Position numbers and translations under genes: made by a program. The notes below the pieces were generated by a model. That model worked only from the letters and a program-made list of their open reading frames with translations. It had not been told where the DNA came from and made no database searches. This document shows, one piece after another, positions 4,461 to 57,053 of a stretch of DNA of 64,000 bases (within the stretch, counting starts at the first letter, position 1; each line of letters begins with the position of its first letter). Origin of the DNA: a virus (Duplodnaviria > Caudoviricetes). Location of the stretch: positions 96,001-160,000 of the IMG/VR virus record IMGVR_UViG_3300026549_000030; one strand, 5' to 3'.

Positions 4461-6024
4461 CTCCGAGGTCCTCGGGACGTTCTACCTTGATATTGTAATC
4501 AACACCCGGCTCGTTGTTAATAATGTAGTCCCTGTATGCCTTTGCGTCACGGACATTAAGATTAAGAATATAATCCACAATGTACTTTCTATCAGTATTT
4601 CCGTTCACGCTTACCGTTGAAAGGATAAGACGGTTCGTCAAATCATGCGAGAATTCATTTTCAGGGATTGTTCCGAAATATGCTTCTCCTTCGTCCTCCA
4701 ATGTATTGATTGCAGAAACCATTTTCTGATATGCTTCCTCCTCAATCAAATCATTATCAACAATTGCGTTGCGAAGTTTTGTAAGACTTTCCTTATATGT
4801 TGCTACGCGGTATTGCTTATCCTCTTCGTTCTGCATTTCCTGCAGTTTCTTTGTATCCTTGTTGGTGAGGAATTTAAATTTCATTTCATCCTTTGTGACA
4901 GGAAGCTTGAATGAGAAATATCCGTCCTCATCACCCGTAAGTGTGAACTTACGATACTTCAAATTCGACAAATCAACAACAGTGTCAAATTCCTCGCCTG
5001 TCTTATCGTCTGTAACGGTTACAGGGTATTCGTTTCCGTATCCGCTTGCGCGAAGCCAGATAATGATAGCATCCCTATCTCCCTGCACCAAGTCGTCAGG
5101 GTCAATACCCTTCACCTTATTCTTAAGCATATGGTCAAGGAACGTTCCGTTTCGATAAAGATTAGGTGAAAGGATAAGGTTCTCGTCGTATGCCGTCAAG
5201 TAACTCACACTTACTTCCTTAATCTTACTTGGATAGCATTCACCCTTTGAAGGAAGATTAACGGTATCGTATGGTGTACGTCCGTCGTTTTCCCTTACGT
5301 TAAGCCCGTCCTGAGAAGGCTGCTCCTGTGCATTTTTCTTCGTTGTCTTTTTCTGTTCAGTTTCAACAACTATCGGCTCCGTCACCGTAATTTTTTTCTC
5401 GTTATCCATTTTTTCTTCCGTTTGTTTCTTTCTATTGTCAGTTTTTGGCGTAACTTCTTCGTACAGAAGCGAAGAAGCCTTATAGGTGTCAAGCGATTCA
5501 GGTTCGTAAACCTCTCGAGACTTGAAGTCAGTATATGAACCCTTCGCAGTAGGGAACGGTTTCACTTCCTCTTCTTTCCTTTCCGTCTTATTGCCCTTCT
5601 CAACAATAGCCCTAATTCCGTCCCGCTTATTTGCCTTTTCAATGGCTTTAATAATACCGCTTCTGTCGATACGCTTCTTATTTTGAACTATCTCGATAAG
5701 ATCCTGTTCATCGCCGCCAAGCTGCAGATACTTAGCCTTGATGTCTTCCTGTGCGGTTTCCATTAGGGCGAGCGTCTTCTTAATGCTCATATCGCTGTAA
5801 ACGCGATTTCCGTACTTATCCTTCTTAGTACTTCTCACACGAACCATTTCGTCCTTACTCTGCTCATACATTTGGTATGAATTTCTGAGAAGTTTAAGGT
5901 CGTTCTGTCTCTGTTCTTCCGCGTCCTGCTCAGGGGTTGCACCGAGAACCCTGTTAAGTATCTCTTTTACACTCTCGTCAAAATGCGGCTCCGTTGGCTT
6001 TGTGCTTTTTCTTGTGTTTGCCAT
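4402..6024 (-). CDS. Baseplate hub assembly protein (T4 gp26-like) with long N-terminal extension
   Basis: YDTVNLPSKGECYP...YLTAYDENLIL...LVQGDRDAIIIWLRASGYGNEY motif typical of the gp26-like hub assembly family. Confidence 0.7.
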   Translation of the reverse strand: MANTRKSTKPTEPHFDESVKEILNRVLGATPEQDAEEQRQNDLKLLRNSYQMYEQSKDEMVRVRSTKKDKYGNRVYSDMSIKKTLALMETAQEDIKAKYLQLGGDEQDLIEIVQNKKRIDRSGIIKAIEKANKRDGIRAIVEKGNKTERKEEEVKPFPTAKGSYTDFKSREVYEPESLDTYKASSLLYEEVTPKTDNRKKQTEEKMDNEKKITVTEPIVVETEQKKTTKKNAQEQPSQDGLNVRENDGRTPYDTVNLPSKGECYPSKIKEVSVSYLTAYDENLILSPNLYRNGTFLDHMLKNKVKGIDPDDLVQGDRDAIIIWLRASGYGNEYPVTVTDDKTGEEFDTVVDLSNLKYRKFTLTGDEDGYFSFKLPVTKDEMKFKFLTNKDTKKLQEMQNEEDKQYRVATYKESLTKLRNAIVDNDLIEEEAYQKMVSAINTLEDEGEAYFGTIPENEFSHDLTNRLILSTVSVNGNTDRKYIVDYILNLNVRDAKAYRDYIINNEPGVDYNIKVERPEDLGGGQMDTFLRLDQFIFVSKV

Positions 6025-6617
6025 TATTTTATATCAATTTTTTCTACAATTATTGCAAAGTGGAATGGATATTTGCTGTCAGCATAATCCTGTAAAATTT
6101 TACATCCATTAAGAAGCGCTTCCTTACCGTTTTCAAGTTCTATGATAAATCCCCTCTTCGGCAAAATTTTCAATTTCATTTTATCATCAAGCGCGTCGTC
6201 GGCGTGAACCTTCTTACTATCGTCAAGCCAGAAACGTATTTCGCTTTCAGCGTCTCCATCCATTGAATTTGGATTTATATTGAGGATAAGCAAGAACATT
6301 TTGCCGGCTTCAAATTTTTCTTGAAAGAATTCATCAGTTACTTCAACTTTCTTCGAATTGTAAATAACAACCTCAGCTTCGTAGTAATCATATATTATAT
6401 CAGGAGAATCGTCAACCTGACGTTCCCTATAATCAGTCATTCTTCCACGTCTGTCAACACCGTTTCTCAAGTCATTGACATAACGGTTCATTTGGCTATT
6501 AGTCTTCCAAAACTTATCGAGAACCATTTCACTGAATTCTTCTCTGGTGAGTTTTCCTGCATATTCGTATTGTCCATGCTCCGTGTCAATCACGGGAATC
6601 TTCATTTTCGTAAGCAT
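6024..6617 (-). CDS. Hypothetical protein
   Basis: 197 aa ORF with a stop/start overlap with the downstream gene. Confidence 0.75.
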   Translation of the reverse strand: MLTKMKIPVIDTEHGQYEYAGKLTREEFSEMVLDKFWKTNSQMNRYVNDLRNGVDRRGRMTDYRERQVDDSPDIIYDYYEAEVVIYNSKKVEVTDEFFQEKFEAGKMFLLILNINPNSMDGDAESEIRFWLDDSKKVHADDALDDKMKLKILPKRGFIIELENGKEALLNGCKILQDYADSKYPFHFAIIVEKIDIK

Positions 6618-7137
6618 GCCTTATTGTCTTATCAACTATATATTTCTTTAATCTTTTACGCAAATAATTCAAAACACCCTCAGGGTCTGAATTTATATCT
6701 TTCTCCCAAATATAAATGATTGGGATTCCGTTCATTTCGCACCATTTGCGCTTCTTCTCGTCTACCCTTATATTCTTTTTCTGAACAGCATTCAAGTCTT
6801 TCTCCTCGAAAACTCTCCTGTCACCGTGCCAATAGGAACCCTGTATCTCAATAATTGGTCCATATGGCTTAACTCTGAAATCAAAAAACCTTCCAATAGA
6901 CTTCGCCTCGTATTGATACACGTACGGGATTCCGAGCTTGTCCAAAAAGTCACGTGCAAATCTCTCTTCAAGCTTAGAGGTACCAAATTTCGGGTGAAAG
7001 TGCCGTTCTTTTTTCACTTTCGGTTTTGCAGGAAGTCTCCTGTCCTTTCTTCCCGATGAAGAGCCGCTCGTTTTCTTAACTGCCTTGGATCTTGGTTTTT
7101 GAAATGTTCCTGTTTTCTTTCTTATCGGCTGCGCCAT
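6586..7137 (-). CDS. Vsr/DUF559-like PD-(D/E)XK endonuclease with basic N-terminus
   Basis: SKLEERF...FFDFRV...IIEIQGSYWHGD...DEKKRKWCEMNGIPIIYIWE. Confidence 0.75.
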   Translation of the reverse strand: MAQPIRKKTGTFQKPRSKAVKKTSGSSSGRKDRRLPAKPKVKKERHFHPKFGTSKLEERFARDFLDKLGIPYVYQYEAKSIGRFFDFRVKPYGPIIEIQGSYWHGDRRVFEEKDLNAVQKKNIRVDEKKRKWCEMNGIPIIYIWEKDINSDPEGVLNYLRKRLKKYIVDKTIRHAYENEDSRD

Positions 7138-7141
7138 TTAC

Positions 7142-7474
7142 TTAATTTTTAGTATATTCAAACACAAACGTCGTAACTCCGTCCTCATTATGGGAAATTA
7201 TTGAAGGAACGAACCAACGTTTAATCTGCACATAATCCTCGTCAGTATCATAACTTATCTTCACGAGAGGTGCGTCCACCGTTCCAATTGAATTTGCTAA
7301 ATTAATCAACATTTCGTCGTCTATGTAATCGTCCGTGTACATAGAGAACGCAAAGCGTTCAACGAATATACTAAGCAATAGAACAGTATAAGTTCTCTTC
7401 TGATATTTCTTGTACCAATCAGAGGTTGTTAAAAAAGTTATCGTAACATTTTTTAAGCTATGTGTTTCTTCCAT
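7142..7474 (-). CDS. Hypothetical protein
   Basis: 110 aa ORF in the minus-strand operon. Confidence 0.65.
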   Translation of the reverse strand: MEETHSLKNVTITFLTTSDWYKKYQKRTYTVLLLSIFVERFAFSMYTDDYIDDEMLINLANSIGTVDAPLVKISYDTDEDYVQIKRWFVPSIISHNEDGVTTFVFEYTKN

Positions 7475-12425: not shown

Positions 12426-13709
12426 TTATTCTTCGTCATTTACCTCATATTCATCTTCTGTTTGCTCTTCGTCGAGTATAGATTCCAAATCATCAAGGCT
12501 TTCTGCGTAGACAATATCCGGCGAATATCCGCCGAGTTTTATTTTCAAAACCTCGTTCTTATGCATTCCCTTATTTGCGGTAATTTTTACCTCATCGTCC
12601 GACCGTAATACGAGTGGAGTATCAACCGTAATGGCACTTTGCGTTATTTCGTCATTTACATAAATTTGTAAATTGCTTATTCCGTGCTCGTACGTAACAC
12701 CTGTAACCACAAGGTTAACGTCGGAAGGAATCGAGAATTTTGCCTTATCTATACACTTCGGCAACGTAACAGAAACGCTTATCGGCTTATAGTAATACTT
12801 ACTCTTTTCCTCCTCGTTACATTCTAAGTCAGAAACGTCAATAACCGTATGGCTTCTACCAGTCTTCATTGGGAGATAAATCGTAGTAACTTCGCCGCAG
12901 GAACCTTCAATGAACAGTGGTTTGTACTCCAACTCATCCATTTCAATTTCGGGCTTCTTCTTAGTAAGACGAGGTAATCCCATTCCGACGCCAATTTTAA
13001 GCGGAACTTCGTCAACACGGTAGTCGTTCTCGGTTATGATATACGCCATAACTTTAATCTGATACGTTTGAGAGTAGAACTGCCTGTCGTTGATATTATA
13101 CTGAGACTCGTCGTTAATGCTCTCAAGCGTCATTGGAATGAAGTGCCCATTCGGTTGAATATAGCACTGACAAGCTGAGAAACATTTATTTACAATCGTA
13201 TTGAATTCATTCAGAGCAGAGTACCTTGTTGTGAATATAGAAACCTTGTAATTCAAGTCGATAGCCATTGGCTGTTTCATCTTCAATACAAGATAAGATT
13301 CTGAGCCGTTCTCGTCAAGAACTTTCTTCTTTTTCATTGGATAGAATCTTTCTCCCGGAATATTCCAAAGTCCGCTTTGAATTTCTCCGTATTTCGGGTT
13401 ATTCTCTCTCGTCACCGTCTTAAAATTAAGCAACAGATTCTTATTCTCGTCAACATATTTCCAAGACTGAGAATACTCAGAGAATCGCTGATTACTGAAC
13501 AACGACATAGTAGGGTACTCCTTGCCATCGTCTGAGACAATGGTAAGTCCCTTCACCCAATCCCTGAATGCTTCGTCTATATCCTTATATTCCAAAGTCT
13601 TCGGTAAGAACGTTCCGTCTTTGACAATATCGTTTAACATTTCAAGACGACGTGCGTTTCCTATCGAACTTGGATTAAGATTTATATGATTAAGATATTC
13701 CTTTGGCAT
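12426..13709 (-). CDS. Tail completion / sheath stabilizer-like protein (gp15-like)
   Basis: DIDEAF...QRFSEY...MKQPMAIDLNYKVSIFT motif; lies between neck and sheath genes. Confidence 0.55.
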   Translation of the reverse strand: MPKEYLNHINLNPSSIGNARRLEMLNDIVKDGTFLPKTLEYKDIDEAFRDWVKGLTIVSDDGKEYPTMSLFSNQRFSEYSQSWKYVDENKNLLLNFKTVTRENNPKYGEIQSGLWNIPGERFYPMKKKKVLDENGSESYLVLKMKQPMAIDLNYKVSIFTTRYSALNEFNTIVNKCFSACQCYIQPNGHFIPMTLESINDESQYNINDRQFYSQTYQIKVMAYIITENDYRVDEVPLKIGVGMGLPRLTKKKPEIEMDELEYKPLFIEGSCGEVTTIYLPMKTGRSHTVIDVSDLECNEEEKSKYYYKPISVSVTLPKCIDKAKFSIPSDVNLVVTGVTYEHGISNLQIYVNDEITQSAITVDTPLVLRSDDEVKITANKGMHKNEVLKIKLGGYSPDIVYAESLDDLESILDEEQTEDEYEVNDEE

Positions 13710-19347: not shown

Positions 19348-21849
19348 ATGGAAAAAACTAAGATTAAGAAAATATCCCAAGAGGATATTGAAAAATTTAT
19401 CGACGGGCGTGACCCGCAAAAGCGAATTGTAAATCTCGAATACAATTACCGCGATGACTTCGTTACAGTAATCTATCGTAACGAGAACGATCAAAAATGC
19501 AAAACAAAGGAAAGTTTCTACCCTTTCTGTTGGGCGACATTGAAAGCGTGCCAACGTCTGTGTCACGGGGATAAGAATGAATTGGTTCGTATAATGAAAT
19601 TATACGGAATCGGCGTAAAGAAGCTTTCGCAAACAAATATCAAGGGAGAAGTTCGGCACGAATTCGATGACGGATACCTGTTTATGTTCTTCGCAAAGAA
19701 GCCAATGTCATACTCCCGCTTCCTTAATTTCTTTAAGGAATGCGACAATCCCGTTTATTCAAGGAATAAGGAAGACGAAGTTAATCGTCCAAAGTCAGAA
19801 TCGAAACAATATCTGTGCGTAACGCCTCAGGAACAGTTCCTCATTTCAACAGGAAAACGTTTCTTTAAGGGGTACGACGATTATGACCAGGTTCTTAAAA
19901 TGACGTTCGACTTGGAGACAACAGGACTTGATACTGAAAAAGATAAGATTAATCAGATTGGTATCAAGTTCAACCGTCCTTTCTTGAATCACCCCGAAGG
20001 ATTTGAGAAAATTTTTACTGTAACAGGAAACACAAAGGAAGAGAGGGAAGACAGCGAAAGGTTCGCCATTGACCAAATGTTCAGAATAATTTACACATTC
20101 AAGCCTGACATTATTACTGCGCATAATGGAGAGAATTTCGACTGGAATATGATTATCGGTGCTTGCAAGCGCCTCGGAATGCCAATTGAGCAATCTTCTG
20201 CAAGGTATTTTGGCGGAGATTATATCCATAAGGAGGAAAAGGAATCAATCTTGAAAATGGGCGGCGAGATGGAAAACTATCACGCCACAATCGTTCCTGG
20301 TGTTATCGTTACAGACTCCCTGCACGCTGTACGCCGTGCGCAGGCGCTTGATTCCAATATGTTAAAGGCAGACTTGAAGTACGTTACAGAGTACTCCAAG
20401 ATGAAAAAGCCTAACCGTGTATATGTTCCCGGAGATAAGATTGCAACCACATGGGCTGATATCATTAACGAATACGCATTCAATAATGAAAACGGAGATT
20501 GGTACCGTTATAATCCAGAACTTAATGATGAGGATAATGGAGAAATTTACGGCGGTAAAAAATCGTTCATTCCAGAACATGGATTCATTAGAGATGGCTA
20601 TGAACTCACAACAGGAAAATATATTGTGGAAAGATACCTCTTGGACGACTTGTGGGAATGCGACAGGGTTGAGTACAGGTACAACACTCCGAATTTCCTT
20701 GTGTGTAAAATGCTTCCCGTTCCGTATCGTCGCTGTACTACTATGGGTACTGCAGTACAGTGGAAGGCGCTTATGCTTGCTTGGAGTTATGAGCAAGGGC
20801 TCGCAATTCCTATGTTCGGTGAGCAAAAGACGTTCACGGGAGGTTTGTCTCGATTATTGAGGACAGGATTTGTTAAAAAAGTTGTTAAGCTTGACTATAA
20901 CTCACTTTATCCTTCCATTATTCTGACATGGGGAATTACCGATCCGACAGACCTTATGCTGTCAATGCTGCATTTCCTTGAACACGTTCTTACACAGCGC
21001 GAAAAATATAAGGGCTTAAAGAAAGCTGCGGGAAAAAAGAAGGAAAAGGCGGAAACCGAAGAAGAAAAACGCAAATACGCTGAGGAAGAATCATTTAACG
21101 ATAAGAAGCAGCTACCTCTTAAAATTTTCGGTAACTCGTTCTTTGGAAGTTACGGAGCGCCTAACGTTTTTCCGTTTGGTAGTCTGAAGTGTGCCGAGCA
21201 GACAACGTGCACAGGGCGCATGGCGTTACGACTTATGATTAGCCATTTCAAGAAGCTTGGATACGAGCCTATTGTGGGTGACTCCTTTACGGAAGACACA
21301 CCAGTGTTTATTAGATATATTAAAACTGGAATGATTGATATTGTTCCTATTTGTGAGCTTATTAGCGAAGAACATATTGAAACAGATGCGCTTGGTCGTG
21401 AATATGATTATTCTAAAAAGCCGTATCAAGTTCTTTGCCGTAGTGGATGGGTAAGCCCGTCGTACATTTACAGGCATAAAACCAATAAGGACATCTACGA
21501 AGTGACAGACGATGAAATGCGAGCTGAAGTTACAGAAGACCATTCACTTTTCGACACAGAAATGAATAAGATTAATCCTTCCGAAATTAACAGTAGTACA
21601 GAATTAGAGTATTACAGCGGAAACATTAGCAATCTAAAAGATAAAGAAGTACGTGATGAGTGGATTGGAGGCGCGGCAAAAAGGCTTGCTGATAACGATA
21701 TTGATAGGGTTCCCCTTTATGTACTGAATGGCACAAAATACAACGCGCAAATGTTCTATGAAGCTTTTATGGAATTTCAGAGGGATGATATTCAATATAG
21801 CAAGACTTGTCTCGCCGGGCTTCAATATCTCAAAAAAAGTATTTCATAA
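19348..21849 (+). CDS. polB: DNA polymerase B, N-terminal part fused to N-intein
   Basis: Exo motifs FDLETTG, HNGENFDW, YLLDD; pol motifs KLDYNSLYPSII and KIFGNSFFG; then IVGD|SFTEDTP. The ORF-track start is 19282. Confidence 0.93.
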   Translation: MEKTKIKKISQEDIEKFIDGRDPQKRIVNLEYNYRDDFVTVIYRNENDQKCKTKESFYPFCWATLKACQRLCHGDKNELVRIMKLYGIGVKKLSQTNIKGEVRHEFDDGYLFMFFAKKPMSYSRFLNFFKECDNPVYSRNKEDEVNRPKSESKQYLCVTPQEQFLISTGKRFFKGYDDYDQVLKMTFDLETTGLDTEKDKINQIGIKFNRPFLNHPEGFEKIFTVTGNTKEEREDSERFAIDQMFRIIYTFKPDIITAHNGENFDWNMIIGACKRLGMPIEQSSARYFGGDYIHKEEKESILKMGGEMENYHATIVPGVIVTDSLHAVRRAQALDSNMLKADLKYVTEYSKMKKPNRVYVPGDKIATTWADIINEYAFNNENGDWYRYNPELNDEDNGEIYGGKKSFIPEHGFIRDGYELTTGKYIVERYLLDDLWECDRVEYRYNTPNFLVCKMLPVPYRRCTTMGTAVQWKALMLAWSYEQGLAIPMFGEQKTFTGGLSRLLRTGFVKKVVKLDYNSLYPSIILTWGITDPTDLMLSMLHFLEHVLTQREKYKGLKKAAGKKKEKAETEEEKRKYAEEESFNDKKQLPLKIFGNSFFGSYGAPNVFPFGSLKCAEQTTCTGRMALRLMISHFKKLGYEPIVGDSFTEDTPVFIRYIKTGMIDIVPICELISEEHIETDALGREYDYSKKPYQVLCRSGWVSPSYIYRHKTNKDIYEVTDDEMRAEVTEDHSLFDTEMNKINPSEINSSTELEYYSGNISNLKDKEVRDEWIGGAAKRLADNDIDRVPLYVLNGTKYNAQMFYEAFMEFQRDDIQYSKTCLAGLQYLKKSIS
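21283..21846 (+). other. Split intein, N-terminal half (188 aa)
   Basis: Ser1 block A SFTEDTPV directly after GD of pol motif C; block B EVTEDHSLF. Confidence 0.85.
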
Positions 21850-21902
21850 TTCTTTCTTTTTAGATTTGTTTGTATATTTATTATTAGAAAGAATTATGAA
21901 AT

Positions 21903-22838
21903 ATGAGAAAACTAACAAAAGAAGAGGTAATTGAAAACATAAAAAAATTGTGCGGAGATAATTTTACGTTTTCATTAAAAGAATATGAAAACACCGGAAG
22001 TAAGGTTATTTTGACTTGCAATAAATGTGGCAAAACCTTCAAAAGAAAATACAATACATTGATGTATAATCAAACGTGCCCATATTGCAATGGTACGGCA
22101 AGGGTACAAGATACTGAATGGTTTATTAAAAAAGCCACAGAACTTCATAATGGTAAGTACGACTATTCAAAGTCAGAATATCGCGGAACAGATAAAAAAG
22201 TAATTGTTATCTGCCATGAAAAAGATGAATTCGGAGAAGAACATGGTGAATTTTTTGTCACCCCACACTCGCATATCGGTTCAATGAAAAGCGGCTGTCC
22301 GAAATGTTCCGGAAAATATAGGACAACAACAGAGGAATTTATTAAGAAAGCGAAGAAAATTCATGGAGATAAGTACGATTACTCAAAAACCGTTTACGTA
22401 AGGGCGCTATCTCCGGTCATAATAACCTGCCCGGAACACGGAGACTTCCTTCAGAAGCCAAACGGCCATTTATCAGGACAGGGCTGCCCTTATTGTAAGC
22501 AAAGTCATATTGAGCGAGAAATAAGGGAACTGCTAATCGAGAATAAAATTGAATTTAAACAAGAATATACGCCAGAATGGCTCAAACCGCTGCATATAGA
22601 TTTTTTCATACCGTCAAAAAATATCGCAATTGAATGTCAAGGGCTACAGCATTTTATTCCCGCAGCATATTACGGTGGAGAAGAAGGGCTTTCTATTAGG
22701 AGAGAAAGGGATGAAAGAAAAAGAAAGTTATGTAGAGAAAACGATATAACGTTATTATATTATGCAAATTACGATTATGATTTCCCTTATTATGTGATCA
22801 AAAATAAAAATGAACTTTTGAACTTTATAAAAAACTAA
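21903..22838 (+). CDS. Free-standing homing-type endonuclease (CxxC Zn-ribbon repeats + PD-(D/E)XK/Vsr-like domain) inside the split pol locus
   Basis: YDYSK...CPEHG...GCPYC repeats; IDFFIPSKNIAIECQGLQHF. Confidence 0.85.
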   Translation: MRKLTKEEVIENIKKLCGDNFTFSLKEYENTGSKVILTCNKCGKTFKRKYNTLMYNQTCPYCNGTARVQDTEWFIKKATELHNGKYDYSKSEYRGTDKKVIVICHEKDEFGEEHGEFFVTPHSHIGSMKSGCPKCSGKYRTTTEEFIKKAKKIHGDKYDYSKTVYVRALSPVIITCPEHGDFLQKPNGHLSGQGCPYCKQSHIEREIRELLIENKIEFKQEYTPEWLKPLHIDFFIPSKNIAIECQGLQHFIPAAYYGGEEGLSIRRERDERKRKLCRENDITLLYYANYDYDFPYYVIKNKNELLNFIKN

Positions 22839-22847
22839 TTATCTTTG
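22817..22847 (+). promoter_or_regulatory. Bacteroidetes primary-sigma promoter (-33 TTTG / -7 TAnnTTTG)
   Basis: TTTG(22817)-N19-TATCTTTG(22840) upstream of the C-terminal pol piece. Confidence 0.65.
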
Positions 22848-22869
22848 AAATATATTAAATTTTAAGAAC

Positions 22870-22971
22870 ATGATTAATGTAAAAAACAAAGGAAAAACGT
22901 CCGCGTATGTTTATGACATCTCTCTTGATGGAACGGTAGTCAACGCACTGGGTATGAACGTCATGAGTAAT
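22870..22971 (+). other. Split intein, C-terminal half
   Basis: Block F VYDI, terminal Asn, Thr+1. Confidence 0.85.
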
Positions 22972-23201
22972 ACAGATGGCTTCAATTTTGCATTACCAGA
23001 CGATTCTGTTTACAGATATACTAAGGAGCATCCTTACGTGAGTACGGGACTATCACGAGAAACAAAAGAAGGCACTGAATATACCGGTTTTAAAGCAGAT
23101 GTAGCAGAATTTAATGATATCTATATGTGCGACAAGCACTACTCCACAGATGCAGTAAATAAAATGGGGCTTGGTATCGATGAAATTGTCGACGCAACCA
23201 T
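22870..23201 (+). CDS. polB: C-intein (34 aa) + DNA polymerase B C-terminal part, exon 1
   Basis: YVYDISL...VMSN|TDG restores motif C (GD-TDG). The unspliced ORF ends at 23220, inside the intron. Confidence 0.88.
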
Positions 23202-23529
23202 TAACAAATTGGTGGCATAACACGAAAACGTGTTAATGAAAATTCGGTGAATTGCGGGAAATCCTATAAAACAATAAAGATACTACTCACAATTGAGAAG
23301 AATGGGTAACGCCATTTTAATAGTAACAACTCTTTATTGGGGACAATCAACTAAACGCAGCCAAGCTTGGGCTTAACAACCCTTGAAGGTTCAGAGACTA
23401 ACGGTTGAAACTCTTTATTGAGAATATAATACCGACACGAGTGCCGAACATCTTAATAAGATGATGATATAGTCCGACACTTTGGGTAACCAAAGAATTA
23501 ATCTTAAATGATTGATTATTAACAGTTTG
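23202..23529 (+). ncRNA. Group I self-splicing intron (no ORF, likely subgroup IA)
   Basis: P AATTGCGGGAA (23250), Q ...CGCAGCC, R GTTCAGAGACTA (23389), S GATATAGTCC (23466); P3 TTCGGT/GCCGAA. P1 is CCAU/GUGG with U.G at the splice site, P10 is AAAUUG/CAAUUU, and the terminal G is 23529. Splicing restores the frame (DATINFSRKNY). Confidence 0.92.
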
Positions 23530-24796
23530 CAATTTTAGCCGCAAAAACTACGCAGACTACTTTCCTGAGAATCCTTATCCTGAGGATGTTAAACTTGTGG
23601 GTAACACTATCAAGTCAAAGAAAATGCCTGAATATATTTCCAAATTCCTTGCAATTGGAATTAGGCTGCTCTTGCAGGGTAAGGGACAGGAGTTCCTTGA
23701 GGAATACTACAACTACGTGGAGAAAATCTACAATTATCAGATACCGCTCAGGGATATCGCAACCAAGGGTAAGATTAAGAAAACACTTGCCGAGTATAAG
23801 AAGGACGTTCAAACACTTACAAAGGCGGGGCGCCCGAAATCCCGACAGGCTTGGTACGAACTTGCAATTGCGAACGGGCTCAGCGTAGGTAACGGTGATA
23901 CGATTTATTATATCAATACAGGTAAGTCAAAATCTCACGCTGACGTTAAAAAAACGAAGAAATTCTATTCTACGGATATGTTCGGACAGACAATCGACAT
24001 AACGAAGAAAATTGAAAGCGCTTATAATAAGTGGAAAAAATCTCCCGAAGCAATAAAGAGTGTAGGCGGAACAAATCTCGCTTCCACATACGCCATTGAC
24101 GATTACGCAAGGAAATACTACAATCCTGTCGATATCAAAGACGAGATTATTCTGAACTGCGCCCTCGTTCCGAGAGATATTCTTGATAAGGAAGAGGACA
24201 CGTTCTGCGCGGACGTAAGCGAGGAACTCGAATATAACGTTCCCAAGTACGTTGATATGTTCAACAAGCGCATTACCCCGCTCCTCGTTTGCTTCAGCAA
24301 GGAAATCCGTTCTGACATTCTTATTGACAATCCGAAGAACCGTCCATACTTCACAAACGAGCAATGCGAACTCGTGTCAGGTGAACCGAATAAACCAGGC
24401 GATCAGGACACATACGAGCAGCTTATGACTATGGAAGATAAGGAAATCAAGTTCTGGAAAAAGTATAACCTTGTTCCTCCATTTGTTGAGGAGTGCGGAA
24501 TGGGAACTTGGGAAGAGATTCTCACTGATTATGATAGGAGAATGGAAGAGGAAGAGAAGAGTGGACTCGCAGCGGAGAAGGCACTATACGGACAACTTCT
24601 CGATCAGATGACGGCAGAGGAAATAGACACCGTTATAGAGGAGGGTACGCTTCCTGCGGCATTCTCAAAAATTGTTGAGGTTGACCCTGAGACAATGGAC
24701 TTAATATCAAAGGCTTACAATCGCGGCAAAATCGGAAATCTACGAGATTTCATTGATGCGAGGACAGCAATAAGTCAGGTTGAAAATATGGATTAA
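23530..24796 (+). CDS. polB: DNA polymerase B C-terminal part, exon 2
   Basis: RKNYA motif, KLVGNTIKSK, GDTIYYI, YNVPKY; in frame with exon 1 after splicing (1599 nt joined). Confidence 0.88.
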
Positions 24797-42687: not shown

Positions 42688-44013
42688 ATGAAAAGACTAA
42701 CACAAGAGGAATTTATTAATAAATGCAAATCCATTCTTGGCGATACGTATACATATGAAAAAACAAAGTACGTAAATAACAGAACAAAAATTACAATAAC
42801 GAACAAATATGGAAAGGATATACAATGTTACCCATCAAACATTAAAAAGCTTAAAGGAAAAAAAGATAAATATGACACAGATTCATTTATAAGAAGGGCA
42901 AAACAGATATATGGTAACAAATATACATATGAAAAAACCAATTGTTCGAATTCTCATGAAAAAGTTATAATAACATGTCCAGAACACGGTGACTTCGAAA
43001 AAACGGCATACGCCTTTTTAAACGGTCAAGAATGCCCAATATGCGGAAATAGATATTCCAATGAAAAATTTGCTAAAATAGCCGAAAACGTACACGAAAA
43101 AAAATACAATTATTCAGAAGTTAATTATATCAACAACAATACAAAGGTATGCATCATTTGCCCAGAACATGGAAAGTTTTGGCAAACGCCTAATTCACAC
43201 TTAAGAGGGAGTGGCTGTCCTTTATGCTACAGAAAAGAAACTCGCGAGAAAGAATGCACAAAATTCTTAGATAAATGTAAAAAGCTATATGACGGAAAAT
43301 ATGATTACTCACAAACCGAATATATTAATTCTAATAGTAAAATTCCAATAATTTGTTCAGAACACGGAATTTTTTGGAAATCCGCAATAAAACACTCAAT
43401 GGGCCAAGCTTGTCCAATTTGCTCAAAAATAAAGCAATCAGAAGCGCTAAGACTAACAACAGACGATTTTATAAGAATGGCAATTGAGAAACATGGAAAC
43501 AAATACGATTATTCAAAAGTCGAATACACAAAATGGAATGAAAAAGTTGCTATTATTTGCAAAAAGCATGGACTATTTTTTCAAACCCCGCATTCGCATA
43601 TTAGCGGTGGTTCAGGGTGCCCAAAATGCAGCGAAAGCCATGCAGAACTCGATATAGAAAAATATCTTAAAAATAATAACATAGAATACGAAACGCAAAA
43701 AACTTTTTCATGGCTAAAAATGAAAAAAAATCTTTTTATAGACTTTTACATCCCATCAAAAAATGTTGGCATTGAATTTCAAGGCGGTCAACATTTCGTA
43801 CCAGTTAAATATGGAAACAATAGCAATGCAGACTTAATATTAGAAAAAACACAAAAAAGAGACAAACAAAAACATGAACTTTGTGAAAAAAATGGAGTGA
43901 AACTTTTATATATAATCCCACAAAAATATAAAGAAAATTTATATGGATTTTATAACAAAGAAAAAGTGTTTAATAATATTGAAGAATTATTATCTTATAT
44001 AAACGAAAAATAG
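42688..44013 (+). CDS. Free-standing homing-type endonuclease (Zn-ribbon repeats + PD-(D/E)XK)
   Basis: Multiple ICPEHG-FWQ-GCP repeats; IDFYIPSKNVGIEFQGGQHF; more AT-rich than flanks. Confidence 0.85.
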   Translation: MKRLTQEEFINKCKSILGDTYTYEKTKYVNNRTKITITNKYGKDIQCYPSNIKKLKGKKDKYDTDSFIRRAKQIYGNKYTYEKTNCSNSHEKVIITCPEHGDFEKTAYAFLNGQECPICGNRYSNEKFAKIAENVHEKKYNYSEVNYINNNTKVCIICPEHGKFWQTPNSHLRGSGCPLCYRKETREKECTKFLDKCKKLYDGKYDYSQTEYINSNSKIPIICSEHGIFWKSAIKHSMGQACPICSKIKQSEALRLTTDDFIRMAIEKHGNKYDYSKVEYTKWNEKVAIICKKHGLFFQTPHSHISGGSGCPKCSESHAELDIEKYLKNNNIEYETQKTFSWLKMKKNLFIDFYIPSKNVGIEFQGGQHFVPVKYGNNSNADLILEKTQKRDKQKHELCEKNGVKLLYIIPQKYKENLYGFYNKEKVFNNIEELLSYINEK

Positions 44014-54229: not shown

Positions 54230-55189
54230 ATGGGAAAATTAAAATTTACCACTGAACAATTTATTGAAGAAGCCAAAAAAATTCATGGTGACAAATTTAT
54301 TTACGACAAGGCTGAGTATCTTGGGGGAGATAAAAAAGTGTGCATAATATGCCCTGAACATGGAGAATTTTGGCAATCCGCAAAAACACATTTGCATGGA
54401 ACCGGCTGCCCATATTGCTACGGGCACTATAAACCAACGACAGAAGGCTTCATTGAGAAATTAAAAAAAATCCACGGGGATAAATATGACTATTCGAAAG
54501 TAGAGTATAAAGGCTCGTTTTCTAAAGTTCGCCTAATTTGCCCTGAGCATGGAGAATTTTGGAAAACGCCCAACTCATTATTACAGGGGCAAGGATGCAG
54601 AAAGTGCGGAACGGCTTCCGCGCAAAATAAAAACAGGATGCAGCAAGAAGAATTCATTGAAAGGGCAAAAGATATCCATCAAAACAAATATGATTATTCG
54701 AAAGTGAACTATATTAATACTGACACAAAAGTTTGCATAATATGTCCGGAGCACGGAGAATTTTGGCAGACTCCACATCATCATTTAAATGGGGTCGGAT
54801 GCCCAAAGTGCGGAAGAAATGACATTACTGAGAAGAAATTATATGAGAATGTTGCAAAAATTTTCCCAGACGCCATACGCCAATATAGACCACATTTTCT
54901 TTATAATAACGGAAAGCCATTATCGTTAGATATTTTTATACCGTCTATAAATACTGCCATTGAATATCAGGGGCGACAACATTTTGTTCCTGTGTCAAGA
55001 TATGGCGGAGACAAAGAACTTTCCAACACAAAAAGAAGAGATGCCAAAAAATTTAATTTATGCAACGAAAACAATGTGACGTTATTGTATGCAAGCTTTG
55101 AAAAAGAAGCCCCAAATACGTATTTTAAGACTATTTATAATAATGAAACAGATTTAATTAACGAATTAAAAAGGCTAAAAAATGATTGA
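54230..55189 (+). CDS. Free-standing homing-type endonuclease (Zn-ribbon repeats + PD-(D/E)XK)
   Basis: Three ICPEHGEFW..GC repeats; LDIFIPSINTAIEYQGRQHF. Confidence 0.85.
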   Translation: MGKLKFTTEQFIEEAKKIHGDKFIYDKAEYLGGDKKVCIICPEHGEFWQSAKTHLHGTGCPYCYGHYKPTTEGFIEKLKKIHGDKYDYSKVEYKGSFSKVRLICPEHGEFWKTPNSLLQGQGCRKCGTASAQNKNRMQQEEFIERAKDIHQNKYDYSKVNYINTDTKVCIICPEHGEFWQTPHHHLNGVGCPKCGRNDITEKKLYENVAKIFPDAIRQYRPHFLYNNGKPLSLDIFIPSINTAIEYQGRQHFVPVSRYGGDKELSNTKRRDAKKFNLCNENNVTLLYASFEKEAPNTYFKTIYNNETDLINELKRLKND

Positions 55190-57053
55190 TTTAACTCAAA
55201 TATCAGAGGAATATGTCAAATGTGTAAGCGACACAACTCGCATATACATGATAGAACATTATCTCAAAACATTCGATATGCGAGTGAATAAAGAAGTGCC
55301 GTTCATGCTGTTTCCTCGGCAAAAAGATTTAATATCTGATTTTAAAAAATACAGGAGAACAATCTGCCTGAAACCGCGCCAAGCCGGAATTACAACAAGC
55401 GCGGCGGCTTTAATGGCTTGCGAGATAGCGTTAGCAGACCCAACCTCGCCTGAAACAGTCCTTATCGTAGGACGTGACTTAAAACTTTCTCAGAACTTAC
55501 TCGAGAAAATAGAGGCGTTCCTTCTTCAAATTCCAAGGTGGTTCTGGGGAGACGAATTCTTCTCACCGGATCCTAAATCTGAAAAGAATAAGAGGGATAT
55601 TTTTAAGGTTCACAATAAATCTCGCTTGGAATTAAAGAACGGCTGCAAGGTATATGCAGTTTCATCAGGCCCGAACGCAGCTCGTGGTATTTCATCTGTT
55701 TCTTGGCTTATATTCGATGAGGCAGCCTTCATTGAGAACGGTAAAGACGTTTATGCTCAGGCTGTCGCTACAACCTCAACGGGTGGTAAAACCATTATGA
55801 TTTCCACTCCTTGCGGTATGGATGAGCTTTATTACGACACATATTACAAGTCAACGATTGGAAAGAACGACTTCCACGTAACAGAACTTCGTTGGTACCA
55901 GGATCCAAGGTACAATCAGTTCCTTAAATGGCAGAAATTTGACGAAGATACCGGCAACATTATCTCCGAGATTGTTGAAGAAACCCTCAATGATAAGGGA
56001 GATATCAAATACGACCCAGATAGGTGGCTTACGTTGGAAAGAGAAGGGTATAAGCCAACGTCTCCTTGGTATGTCGGAATGTGCAACGCATTCAACAATG
56101 ACCCGATTAAAATTGCCCAAGAGCTTGACGTTTCATTTGTCGGTTCTTCGGACAATGTGGTTGCGGGAAATTTCATTGAAATGCAGAAGAAGCTCAACAA
56201 CAGGGAACCGGACCCTACACTTAGGGATATGGCACTGAATGAGACTTGGGTTTGGAAGGCGCCTATTCCTGGGCACCAATATATTATGGCAATAGATAAC
56301 TCAAAGGGTGATTCTGACGACGCAACGGCTCTTGAAATAATTGACATTGACGGAATTGACGACGACGGAACACCTTGCATGGAGCAGGTTCTCGAATATA
56401 ACGGAAAATTATATGGCGACGCAATTGGTGATATTGCAAACAATTACGGAAGGTTATATAATGACGCTTTTTGTGTGGTTGAAGATATTGGAGGCTATGG
56501 ATCAGCAACAATCCTTCGTCTTCTCGCACTTGAATATCCGAATATGTATTATGACGACGAGGATTTGAAGACATACACGATTATCAACAGAACTGAAACA
56601 AAGAATAAGGGCGATAGAATGCCGGGCTACAAGAATGGCAATAACCGATTCCAAATGCTCAACAACTTCGCGAATTTAGTTCGTACAAATCAGTTTAAAA
56701 TTCGCTCTTCAAGAGTGTGCGCGGAATTACAGACATGGATTTGGAAGAATGGACGCCAAGATCATATGGACGGAAAGCACGACGATACAATTACCTGCCT
56801 CGCAATGGGCTTGTTCGTTATTCAATTCTCACTCGGAAGAATGCTCAAGAACAAGGCAAAGGACGAAACTATTATGCGTGCGCTTATTATGGCAAACAGT
56901 CGCATAAAATACGTTCCAACCGCAACAGCAACAACCGAGCAGAAAATCGATGAAGTTAAAAAGAAATACGCAATGCCCGCGTATTATAGTAATCAGCCAC
57001 TTTATCAAGGACAAAGTGCAGCTTACAAAGCATCAATGTGGTTAATAAAATAA
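55182..57053 (+). CDS. terL: Terminase large subunit (gp17-like)
   Basis: LFPRQ, LKPRQAGIT (Walker A), LIFDEAAF, ISTPCG, nuclease MAIDNSKG...HDD. Confidence 0.95.
   Translation: MIDLTQISEEYVKCVSDTTRIYMIEHYLKTFDMRVNKEVPFMLFPRQKDLISDFKKYRRTICLKPRQAGITTSAAALMACEIALADPTSPETVLIVGRDLKLSQNLLEKIEAFLLQIPRWFWGDEFFSPDPKSEKNKRDIFKVHNKSRLELKNGCKVYAVSSGPNAARGISSVSWLIFDEAAFIENGKDVYAQAVATTSTGGKTIMISTPCGMDELYYDTYYKSTIGKNDFHVTELRWYQDPRYNQFLKWQKFDEDTGNIISEIVEETLNDKGDIKYDPDRWLTLEREGYKPTSPWYVGMCNAFNNDPIKIAQELDVSFVGSSDNVVAGNFIEMQKKLNNREPDPTLRDMALNETWVWKAPIPGHQYIMAIDNSKGDSDDATALEIIDIDGIDDDGTPCMEQVLEYNGKLYGDAIGDIANNYGRLYNDAFCVVEDIGGYGSATILRLLALEYPNMYYDDEDLKTYTIINRTETKNKGDRMPGYKNGNNRFQMLNNFANLVRTNQFKIRSSRVCAELQTWIWKNGRQDHMDGKHDDTITCLAMGLFVIQFSLGRMLKNKAKDETIMRALIMANSRIKYVPTATATTEQKIDEVKKKYAMPAYYSNQPLYQGQSAAYKASMWLIK

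Follow-up and report, generated by a model that had tools for sequence, protein, structure and literature searches.

The window analysed here, 64,000 nucleotides (nt) of phage DNA that correspond to bases 96001-160000 of the 242-kb IMG/VR virus record IMGVR_UViG_3300026549_000030, contains a family B DNA polymerase (PolB) gene that is broken into three pieces. Our results indicate that this gene, which encodes the only polymerase detectable in the record, has very probably been interrupted by a composite selfish cassette consisting of a split intein, an endonuclease gene and an intron. In silico the three-piece reading holds: the polymerase is predicted to require protein trans-splicing in addition to RNA self-splicing, and the endonuclease is encoded between the two intein halves (Table 1). 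This reading follows from the exact junctions, the conserved splicing residues, the intein fold, the P1, P10 and terminal G of the group I intron, and the lack of a second polymerase in the record.

The open reading frames (ORFs) present at the locus are 19282/19348..21849, 21903..22838, 22870..23220 and 23597..24796. The first of these, read from 19348, encodes 833 amino acids (aa), of which the extein part ends EPIVGD and is followed by a 188-aa tail beginning SFTEDTPV. In the ORF at 22870..23220 the first 34 aa end in NVMSN, after which the frame reads TDGFNF. When 19348-21282, 22972-23201 and 23530-24796 are joined in silico the result is an open frame of 1143 aa (645+498), in which the sequence reads IVGDTDGFNF at the intein junction and DATINFSRKNY at the intron junction, and in which all polymerase motifs are intact. 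Motif C is whole only after protein splicing, and the KxY motif begins three codons past the intron. The sequence predicted across the exon-exon junction at 23201/23530 is GCAACCAU followed by CAAUUUUAGC. The N-extein matches the Pfam domains DNA_pol_B_exo1 and DNA_pol_B as well as phrog_262 (2.1e-52).

In an alignment with seven uninterrupted homologues the joined product shows zero gaps across GD/TDG and across DAT/INFSRKNY (here and below a slash marks a junction or insertion point), and its closest homologue, P0016, is 97.2% identical over 1143 aa. A homologue search of 5.8 billion proteins found many uninterrupted relatives of about 1135-1160 aa and many split ones of about 830-870 aa. 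An empty allele with neither intein nor intron, L002, reads GGT GAT ACA GAT GGT and ACA ATT AAC TTC at the two sites, and is 98.6% identical to the window in nt over the exon at 23530..24796. Chance is excluded by the Rfam E-value of the intron, by alignments free of gaps and by the finding of this architecture again in the independent contigs L003 and L087. The analysis thus bears out an earlier, unaided reading of the window (the original prediction), which had motif C cut between IVGD and TDG, the N-intein, the endonuclease gene and the intron at the boundaries in Table 1, a separate ORF beginning with a 34-aa C-intein, and a mature enzyme of about 645+498 aa. The in silico join and alignment that it proposed proved contiguous across both junctions.

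Table 1. Pieces of the PolB gene and the elements that interrupt it (window coordinates)
Feature	Position	Strand	Length	Content
N-extein, family B DNA polymerase	19348..21282	+	645 aa	exonuclease domain, motif A DYNSLYPS, motif B KIFGNSFFGSYG, first motif C Asp (IVGD)
N-intein	21283..21849 (coding part 21283-21846)	+	188 aa plus stop	
Free-standing homing endonuclease gene	21903..22838	+	311 aa	
C-intein	22870..22971	+	34 aa	block F VYDISLDG, block G VMSN, then Thr+1
C-extein exon 1	22972..23201	+	230 nt	completes motif C (TDGFNF), ends IVDAT plus AU of Ile codon
Group I intron (predicted), ORF-less	23202..23529	+	328 nt	Rfam RF00028
C-extein exon 2	23530..24796	+		third Ile-codon base plus 421 codons and stop; KxY motif SRKNYA, thumb/C-terminal region

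One alternative is that the gene is dead, that is, that the fragments are decaying while the phage is replicated by another polymerase, encoded in the third of the genome that was not sequenced. The CheckV completeness estimate for the record is 68%, which leaves room for such a gene, and within the record, at this degree of completeness, neither a second PolB nor a PolA was detected. A decaying gene is difficult to reconcile with frames that are all open, with polymerase motifs that are all intact and with exons that are strongly conserved: the aa identity to the intact allele is 97%, and the differences are mostly synonymous. The architecture is moreover kept in relatives whose polymerase exons are 70-86% identical in nt to those of the window. 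We therefore regard this alternative as extremely improbable.

Against the otherwise near-identical L002 there are dense patches of mismatches at 20436-20691 and 21003-21108 (nt 1089-1344 and 1656-1761 of the joined coding sequence). The first patch coincides with residues of about 390-414, where P0037, P0043 and P0091 hold extra segments of about 75-120 aa, and might mark a further hot spot for insertion or the scar of an old conversion.

The split intein

The intein lies at the pol-c site, between the Asp and the Thr of motif C (IVGD/TDGFNF). This insertion point (YGD/TDS) is used by archaeal PolB inteins, by the Mimivirus intein and by the split Nanoarchaeum intein (PMC549080). The extein boundary was set by gap-free alignment, and Ser1 is invariant in 15 split and cis homologues. 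Across the split and cis alignments T84 and H87 of the block B TxxH motif (VTEDHSLF), the NX-type Arg64-His65, the block F Asp (VYDIS) and Thr+1 are likewise invariant, and the terminal Asn is at least 90% conserved. The NX motif, in which His is preceded by Arg or Lys, is reported to be specific to Ser1 inteins (PMC10189870), and the position of Arg64-His65 is comparable to that of Neq His61 and PolB16 His68 as quoted in the same study. Judged by these residues the intein is predicted to be of class 1, in the Ser1/Thr+1 subgroup without a catalytic cysteine.

Eight relatives carry a contiguous intein of 355-358 aa at the identical site, with a Pfam LAGLIDADG_3 domain (2e-14) and a canonical end that reads AHN/T. 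The window N-intein matches the N-terminal splicing domain of these cis inteins (BLASTP 1e-28), and the window C-intein matches their C-terminus plus extein (BLASTP 2e-9). This indicates that the split intein derives from a contiguous LAGLIDADG cis intein that is still found at the same site in more distant relatives. The last approximately 85 aa of the N-intein are helical, and in the MAFFT alignment they fall on the second half of LAGLIDADG, whose acidic motif they lack. We tentatively propose that this tail is the remnant of a dead LAGLIDADG endonuclease, for which the pairwise score is weak (E 0.71).

The predicted fold agrees with the assignment. In an AlphaFold2 (AF2) model the N-intein has a predicted local distance difference test score (pLDDT) of 86.7, and the top Foldseek matches of this model are all inteins (Mja TFIIB, NeqN/NeqC and PolB16 OarG; probability 0.98-1.00). 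A phmmer search of Protein Data Bank (PDB) chains with the N-intein gave no useful match. When the N-intein and C-intein were predicted as a complex the score was 0.93, and that of the best control was 0.32. The mark applied to such scores was reached by 58 of 80 solved complexes and by 2 of 110 mismatched pairs, counts that are approximate since our own alignments were used. Prediction runs of this pair agree in at least 95% of contacts, with a partner pLDDT of at least 83. A pass of this kind may be read as a likeness to solved split-intein complexes, not as proof of binding, and a memory effect is possible.

It is also conceivable that protein splicing no longer takes place, the intein halves having decayed into a docking module that holds together a non-covalent two-subunit enzyme, in the manner of the split gp43 of some T4-like Aeromonas phages and of Aeh1 NrdA. 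Fractured phage genes that work unspliced have precedents (PMC2677866; PMC3045599), and the window intein has lost the penultimate His. Every splicing residue is nevertheless invariant or nearly so across relatives whose N-inteins are 42-93% identical to that of the window, and the break falls between the two catalytic Asp of motif C, such that 222 retained intein residues would occupy the active site. Given a break inside the catalytic motif and conserved splicing residues, an unspliced two-subunit enzyme is very unlikely. The intein is instead predicted to splice.

The cis forms and some split relatives have His as the penultimate residue, and a few relatives end in Lys-Gln. The Lys-Gln ending, in place of Ser/His-Asn before Thr+1, was seen in P0127, P0128, P0132, P0137, P0156 and at L035:5322-5423; its final residue is uncommon for inteins. 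At L008:5328-5450 the C-intein region is apparently out of frame with the extein: in place of the expected VYDISLDG the ORF has CTIYPWMAPLWMLIQG.

The group I intron

The Rfam model RF00028 aligns over its full length to window positions 23192-23496, scoring 70.6 bits against a gathering score of 50 (E 6.9e-16), and this is the sole group I intron that Rfam finds in the entire window. A guide sequence at 23206-23215 contacts both exons. Its part at 23212-23215 pairs with the 5' exon, so that in P1 C23198-C-A-U23201 pairs with G23212-U-G-G23215 and a U.G pair (U23201.G23212) is placed at the 5' splice site. Immediately 5' of this strand, AAAUUG (23206-23211) pairs with CAAUUU (23530-23535), the first bases of the 3' exon, to form a P10 of 6 bp. 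The last intron base is G23529. In the Rfam alignment there is an insertion after the 5' strand of P7, which we tentatively take to be the P7.1/P7.2 extension typical of subgroup IA.

The exon codons around the site fit the guide sequence in the window and not in L002. They read ACC AT/C AAT TTT in the window and ACA ATT AAC TTC in L002, from which the intron is absent, and the positions of the synonymous differences between the two coincide exactly with those that are paired to the guide. Close homologues of the intron are present in L003 (71.5 bits in Rfam) and L087 (73.3 bits). A sister class of introns, at L008:5627-5975, L035:5630-5975 and L086:5309-5653, has a conserved core in common with the window intron in DNA alignment and RNAalifold analysis. 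Its insertion point is 21 nt upstream of that in the window (GGC AU/N GAU GAA), and its guide sequence differs correspondingly. Rfam RF00028 misses the introns of L008, L035 and L086, both at the gathering threshold and at E up to 1, and thus overlooks this sister class entirely. In an RNAalifold consensus of the six homologous introns 27 of 56 pairs are compensatory, including the exon-guide pairs, and the U.G column is invariant; as the set comprises six sequences in two clades, this covariation is supportive and not a statistical proof.

On the strength of these sequence features 23202-23529 is a bona fide group I intron, for which self-splicing is predicted. It begins exactly 230 nt after the C-intein and its removal gives the in-frame DATINFSRKNY, both as originally predicted.

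Other placements of the splice sites were considered and rejected. A splice after U23202 with an exon from 23531 would give an intron ending in C, and a 3' splice site after G23525 would lead to a stop codon or the wrong frame. We also considered whether the 3' tail of the intron could be a decayed duplicate of the exon stretch downstream of the sister-class intron, for which the similarity is too weak.

The free-standing endonuclease

The ORF at 21903..22838, between the intein halves, matches phrog_559 (2.1e-66), phrog_9084 ('homing endonuclease') and Pfam DUF4379. Its N-terminus consists of zinc-ribbon repeats (Pfam DUF4379, with DUF723 below threshold) that appear as repeated stretches in homologues. 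The family is very large, with 40,974 representatives found at E up to 0.001; repeated zinc-ribbon modules precede a C-terminal domain in its members. In place of an N-terminal DNA-binding region of the NUMOD or helix-turn-helix type, this endonuclease has the zinc-ribbon repeats.

The C-terminal part (residues 131-311) is modelled by AF2 with a pLDDT of 93.9. In the Foldseek ranking of this domain Vsr (1cw0) comes first, with E 3.3e-3 and probability 1.00, and I-Bth0305I (3r3p) takes ranks 2-3 with E 5.1e-3, probability 1.00 and a TM score by target of 0.58-0.63. Residues D103, E114, H120, D140 and K143 (alignment numbering) are invariant in 33 sequences. A phmmer search of PDB sequences with the nuclease gave nothing useful. 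From the structural ranking and the invariant D/E/H/D/K residues, the modelled enzyme is probably of the Vsr-like/EDxHD type, to which the nucleases of 'fractured genes' belong (PMC2677866, PMC3239194). The order of DNA-binding domain and then nuclease domain is that of the I-Bth0305I-type EDxHD nucleases, from which it differs in the binding module.

Paralogues of the endonuclease are encoded elsewhere in the window, on the + strand, at 42688-44013 (phrog_559, 1.5e-79) and 54230-55189 (phrog_559, 4.1e-65), the latter overlapping the first 8 nt of the large terminase ORF at 55182..57053. At least two more lie outside the window in the 242-kb record, which makes at least four paralogues in total. 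At L087:1315-4967 the intein halves are separated by 3.6 kb that hold two endonuclease genes of this family, a nucleotidyltransferase-like ORF and a small ORF.

Distribution among related loci

The architecture of the gene was surveyed in 80 IMG/VR loci plus L002 and L003. The gene is uninterrupted in 43 loci, has a cis intein in 8 and a split intein without an intron in 18. Besides the window, a split intein together with an intron was found in two (L003 and L035). One further locus (L008) has the intron, the N-part of the gene not being found in the locus, and 10 could not be classified. L086 and L087, which were fetched separately from the survey, have both split intein and intron. The layout with an endonuclease gene between the intein halves is present in L003, L086 and L087 as well.

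A search with the 116-aa ORF that comprises the C-intein and exon 1 returned 131 protein clusters. Judged by the peptide that results from read-through into the intron, 12 of these are truncated by an intron at the site used in the window (TINKLVA) and 34 by one at the upstream site (GLGINxICAA), so that the upstream class is the commoner. A C-intein is carried by 38 of the 46 intron-truncated clusters; cluster P0221 has the intron without an intein. The three-piece layout is thus widespread in this clade of related metagenomic phages, in which each element also occurs alone. The original prediction had called the combination unusual. Within the clade it is common, about 40 clusters of C-intein ORFs being truncated by an intron.

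Two of the loci show further peculiarities. In L086 the C-terminal exon (6003-7295) is called as two ORFs of 313 and 84 aa separated by a gap of 96 nt, which could be a further interruption or a frameshift. In L008 the N-half is more than 5 kb away, beyond several unrelated ORFs.

A proposed composite mobile cassette

In pairwise comparisons the cassette behaves as one unit. In comparison with L003, a locus of the same architecture, nt identity is 85.6% and 85.8% for the polymerase exons and reaches 95.8% in the N-intein, 97.9% in the endonuclease gene, 99.0% in the C-intein, 93.9% in the enclosed 230-nt exon and 99.1% in the intron. The high identity begins at the intein site and drops back about 150 nt past the intron. 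In comparison with L002, which has none of the elements, the pattern is reversed. A tract of 52 mismatches opens at the final base of the GD codon and closes 70 nt beyond the intron site, with no mismatch in the roughly 170 nt before it and 0 over about 1 kb downstream. The simplest reading of these sequence patterns is that the block from N-intein to intron was gained or lost by a single gene-conversion event.

The intron is ORF-less and the free-standing nuclease is the only one within the cassette. Free-standing nucleases that move nuclease-less introns have precedents (PMC2790892; PMC3984707). It seems to us somewhat probable that the free-standing endonuclease likewise moves intein and intron jointly, as one unit. 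In this model the endonuclease would cut cassette-free alleles and that repair would copy the block from N-intein to intron, with the enclosed exon, as one co-conversion unit, the intron hitch-hiking without a nuclease of its own. In the transcript, the U23201-G23212 pair in P1, the terminal G23529 and the 6-bp P10 that aligns the 3' exon would allow the intron to splice itself out, giving a messenger RNA for the C-intein and the 498-aa C-extein. The 833-aa N-half and the 532-aa C-half would then dock through the intein halves, and trans-splicing would produce the 1143-aa polymerase with motif C rebuilt. Splicing at both levels would in this case make the insertion tolerable and would not be a designed control step. 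The proposal in its fullest form is that one Vsr-like endonuclease inside a split intein drives joint spread with a nuclease-less intron 230 nt away, that two-level splicing neutralises the cost, that the cassette is widespread in a clade of ruminant-gut jumbo phages, and that the intron reached a second site 21 nt away through a change of guide. Taken with all its parts, we see about equal grounds for accepting and for doubting it.

The intron and the block of intein and endonuclease might instead be independent invaders that arrived and move separately, in which case the identity pattern would reflect a larger recombination unrelated to the endonuclease. The split intein without the intron in 18 loci, the intron without the intein in P0221 and the existence of two intron sites 21 nt apart are in keeping with this view. 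In both informative comparisons, however, the boundaries of the tract coincide with the outer edges of the two elements, and an intron without its own nuclease needs an external driver. Separate arrival and movement is therefore rather unlikely in our view, though it deserves some weight.

The original prediction went on to suggest that the two splicing events could gate replication. Under such adaptive gating both layers would be a regulatory checkpoint that permits polymerase to be made only when GTP and folding or redox conditions allow. In its favour, both elements adjoin catalytic motifs of what is the only polymerase detected, many relatives share the combination, and phage introns have been discussed as 'molecular switches' (PMC11878797). 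Against this, a 97%-identical strain has neither element, the gene is uninterrupted in 43 of about 80 related loci, conservation is far higher in the cassette than in the host gene, and the cassette has a homing endonuclease inside it. Presence/absence polymorphism in near-identical strains, cassette-wide conservation and the embedded nuclease point to selfish spread and not to a regulatory device. Gating thus gains no positive support from our data, which fit selfish homing elements, and is highly improbable.

Several points weigh against a polymerase gene that depends on two kinds of splicing and carries one composite cassette. The record is about 68% complete, so a second polymerase is possible in the missing part. 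The penultimate residue of the intein is Ser, not the usual His, and the Foldseek E-values for intein and nuclease are weak (approximately 3e-3 to 2e-2), though the ranks are clean. The intron-only (P0221) and intein-only (18 loci) alleles show that both elements can occur apart, and mobilisation of both by one nuclease is deduced from identity patterns in two pairwise comparisons.

Comparison with known systems

The components of the locus are all of known kinds: pol-c inteins, including a split one, fractured genes with Vsr-like enzymes, introns in phage polymerase genes, genes with both intron and intein, and split PolB inteins from the ruminant gut. Dassa et al. (2009) described, in metagenomic DNA of phage type, genes in which the halves of a split intein flank a free-standing Vsr-like homing endonuclease (PMC2677866). 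The window locus resembles these fractured genes in its adjacent same-strand ORFs with intein halves, in the Vsr-like endonuclease between them and in having a replication enzyme as host. It differs in that an ORF-less group I intron, which apparently moves with the cassette, follows after 230 nt within the C-extein gene, in the helical remnant of about 85 aa retained by the N-intein, and in the binding part of the nuclease, which consists of zinc-ribbon/DUF723 repeats and not of NUMODs.

The Neq Pol split intein and the archaeal and Mimivirus pol-c inteins (PMC549080; PMC10189870) share with the window intein the same point in motif C (xGD/TDx) and Ser1/Thr+1 without a catalytic Cys, and NeqN/NeqC are among the top structural matches of the window N-intein. 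Unlike those of the window, the Neq halves are encoded far apart, with neither a nuclease gene nor an intron. Sequence similarity between the two inteins was not detected by phmmer, and the host here is presumably mesophilic. Aes123 PolB1 (PMC11923092) and PolB16 OarG, from a sheep gut metagenome (PMC10189870), are naturally split phage-type PolB inteins with Ser1 and an NX Arg/Lys-His, as here. In contrast to them the window intein belongs to a different sequence family (no phmmer match to any PDB chain) and has Thr+1. Its split is typical (long N-part, 34-aa C-part), with an N-part that at 188 aa is unusually long. Natural split inteins that come from mesophiles and use Ser1/Thr+1 chemistry have been called very rare and valuable as tools (PMC10189870, PMC11923092). 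The family found here has many diverse natural members, which may be of value for protein engineering as mesophilic Ser1/Thr+1 split inteins.

The SPbeta nrdE gene (as cited in PMC3653736) is, like the present one, a single essential gene of nucleotide metabolism that needs both RNA and protein splicing. The nrdE intein is contiguous and cis-splicing, as in known genes with intron plus intein, whereas that of the window is split and the gene is encoded in three separate pieces. In the open-access literature searched we found no report of a gene that needs both split-intein trans-splicing and RNA self-splicing, nor any description of a split intein and a group I intron within one gene or of an intein and an intron that apparently travel as one unit. 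Trans-homing and collaborative homing, as in T4 mobE with the nrdB intron (PMC2790892) and in cyanophage psbA (PMC3984707), likewise involve an ORF-less intron near a free-standing endonuclease, with co-conversion of the flanking exon. Here the endonuclease is inside a split intein and would mobilise intein and intron together. If one nuclease moves both, the 'fractured gene' model becomes linked with trans-homing and collaborative homing, and near-identical strains with and without the cassette would be a clean natural system in which to test such teamwork among mobile elements.

Genomic setting

Genes for tail sheath, portal, major head protein and large terminase are present in the window, from which the phage is recognised as a jumbo, myovirus-like phage. 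Relatives come from bovine and other gut-type metagenomes, and one related contig (L086) is labelled bovine. A megablast search with the polymerase region against 50,697 phage records found no similar record. By tblastn against phage records the nearest cultured PolBs are those of Salinibacter phages, with 22% identity in the N-extein, and the C-terminal exon had no match. Gene callers break the polymerase into three or four 'hypothetical' ORFs.

ARAGORN called a tRNA-SeC-like gene of 90 nt with anticodon UCA at 13477-13566 on the - strand, within the ORF at 12426..13709. The call may be a false positive or may represent a tRNA of the UGA-suppressor type.

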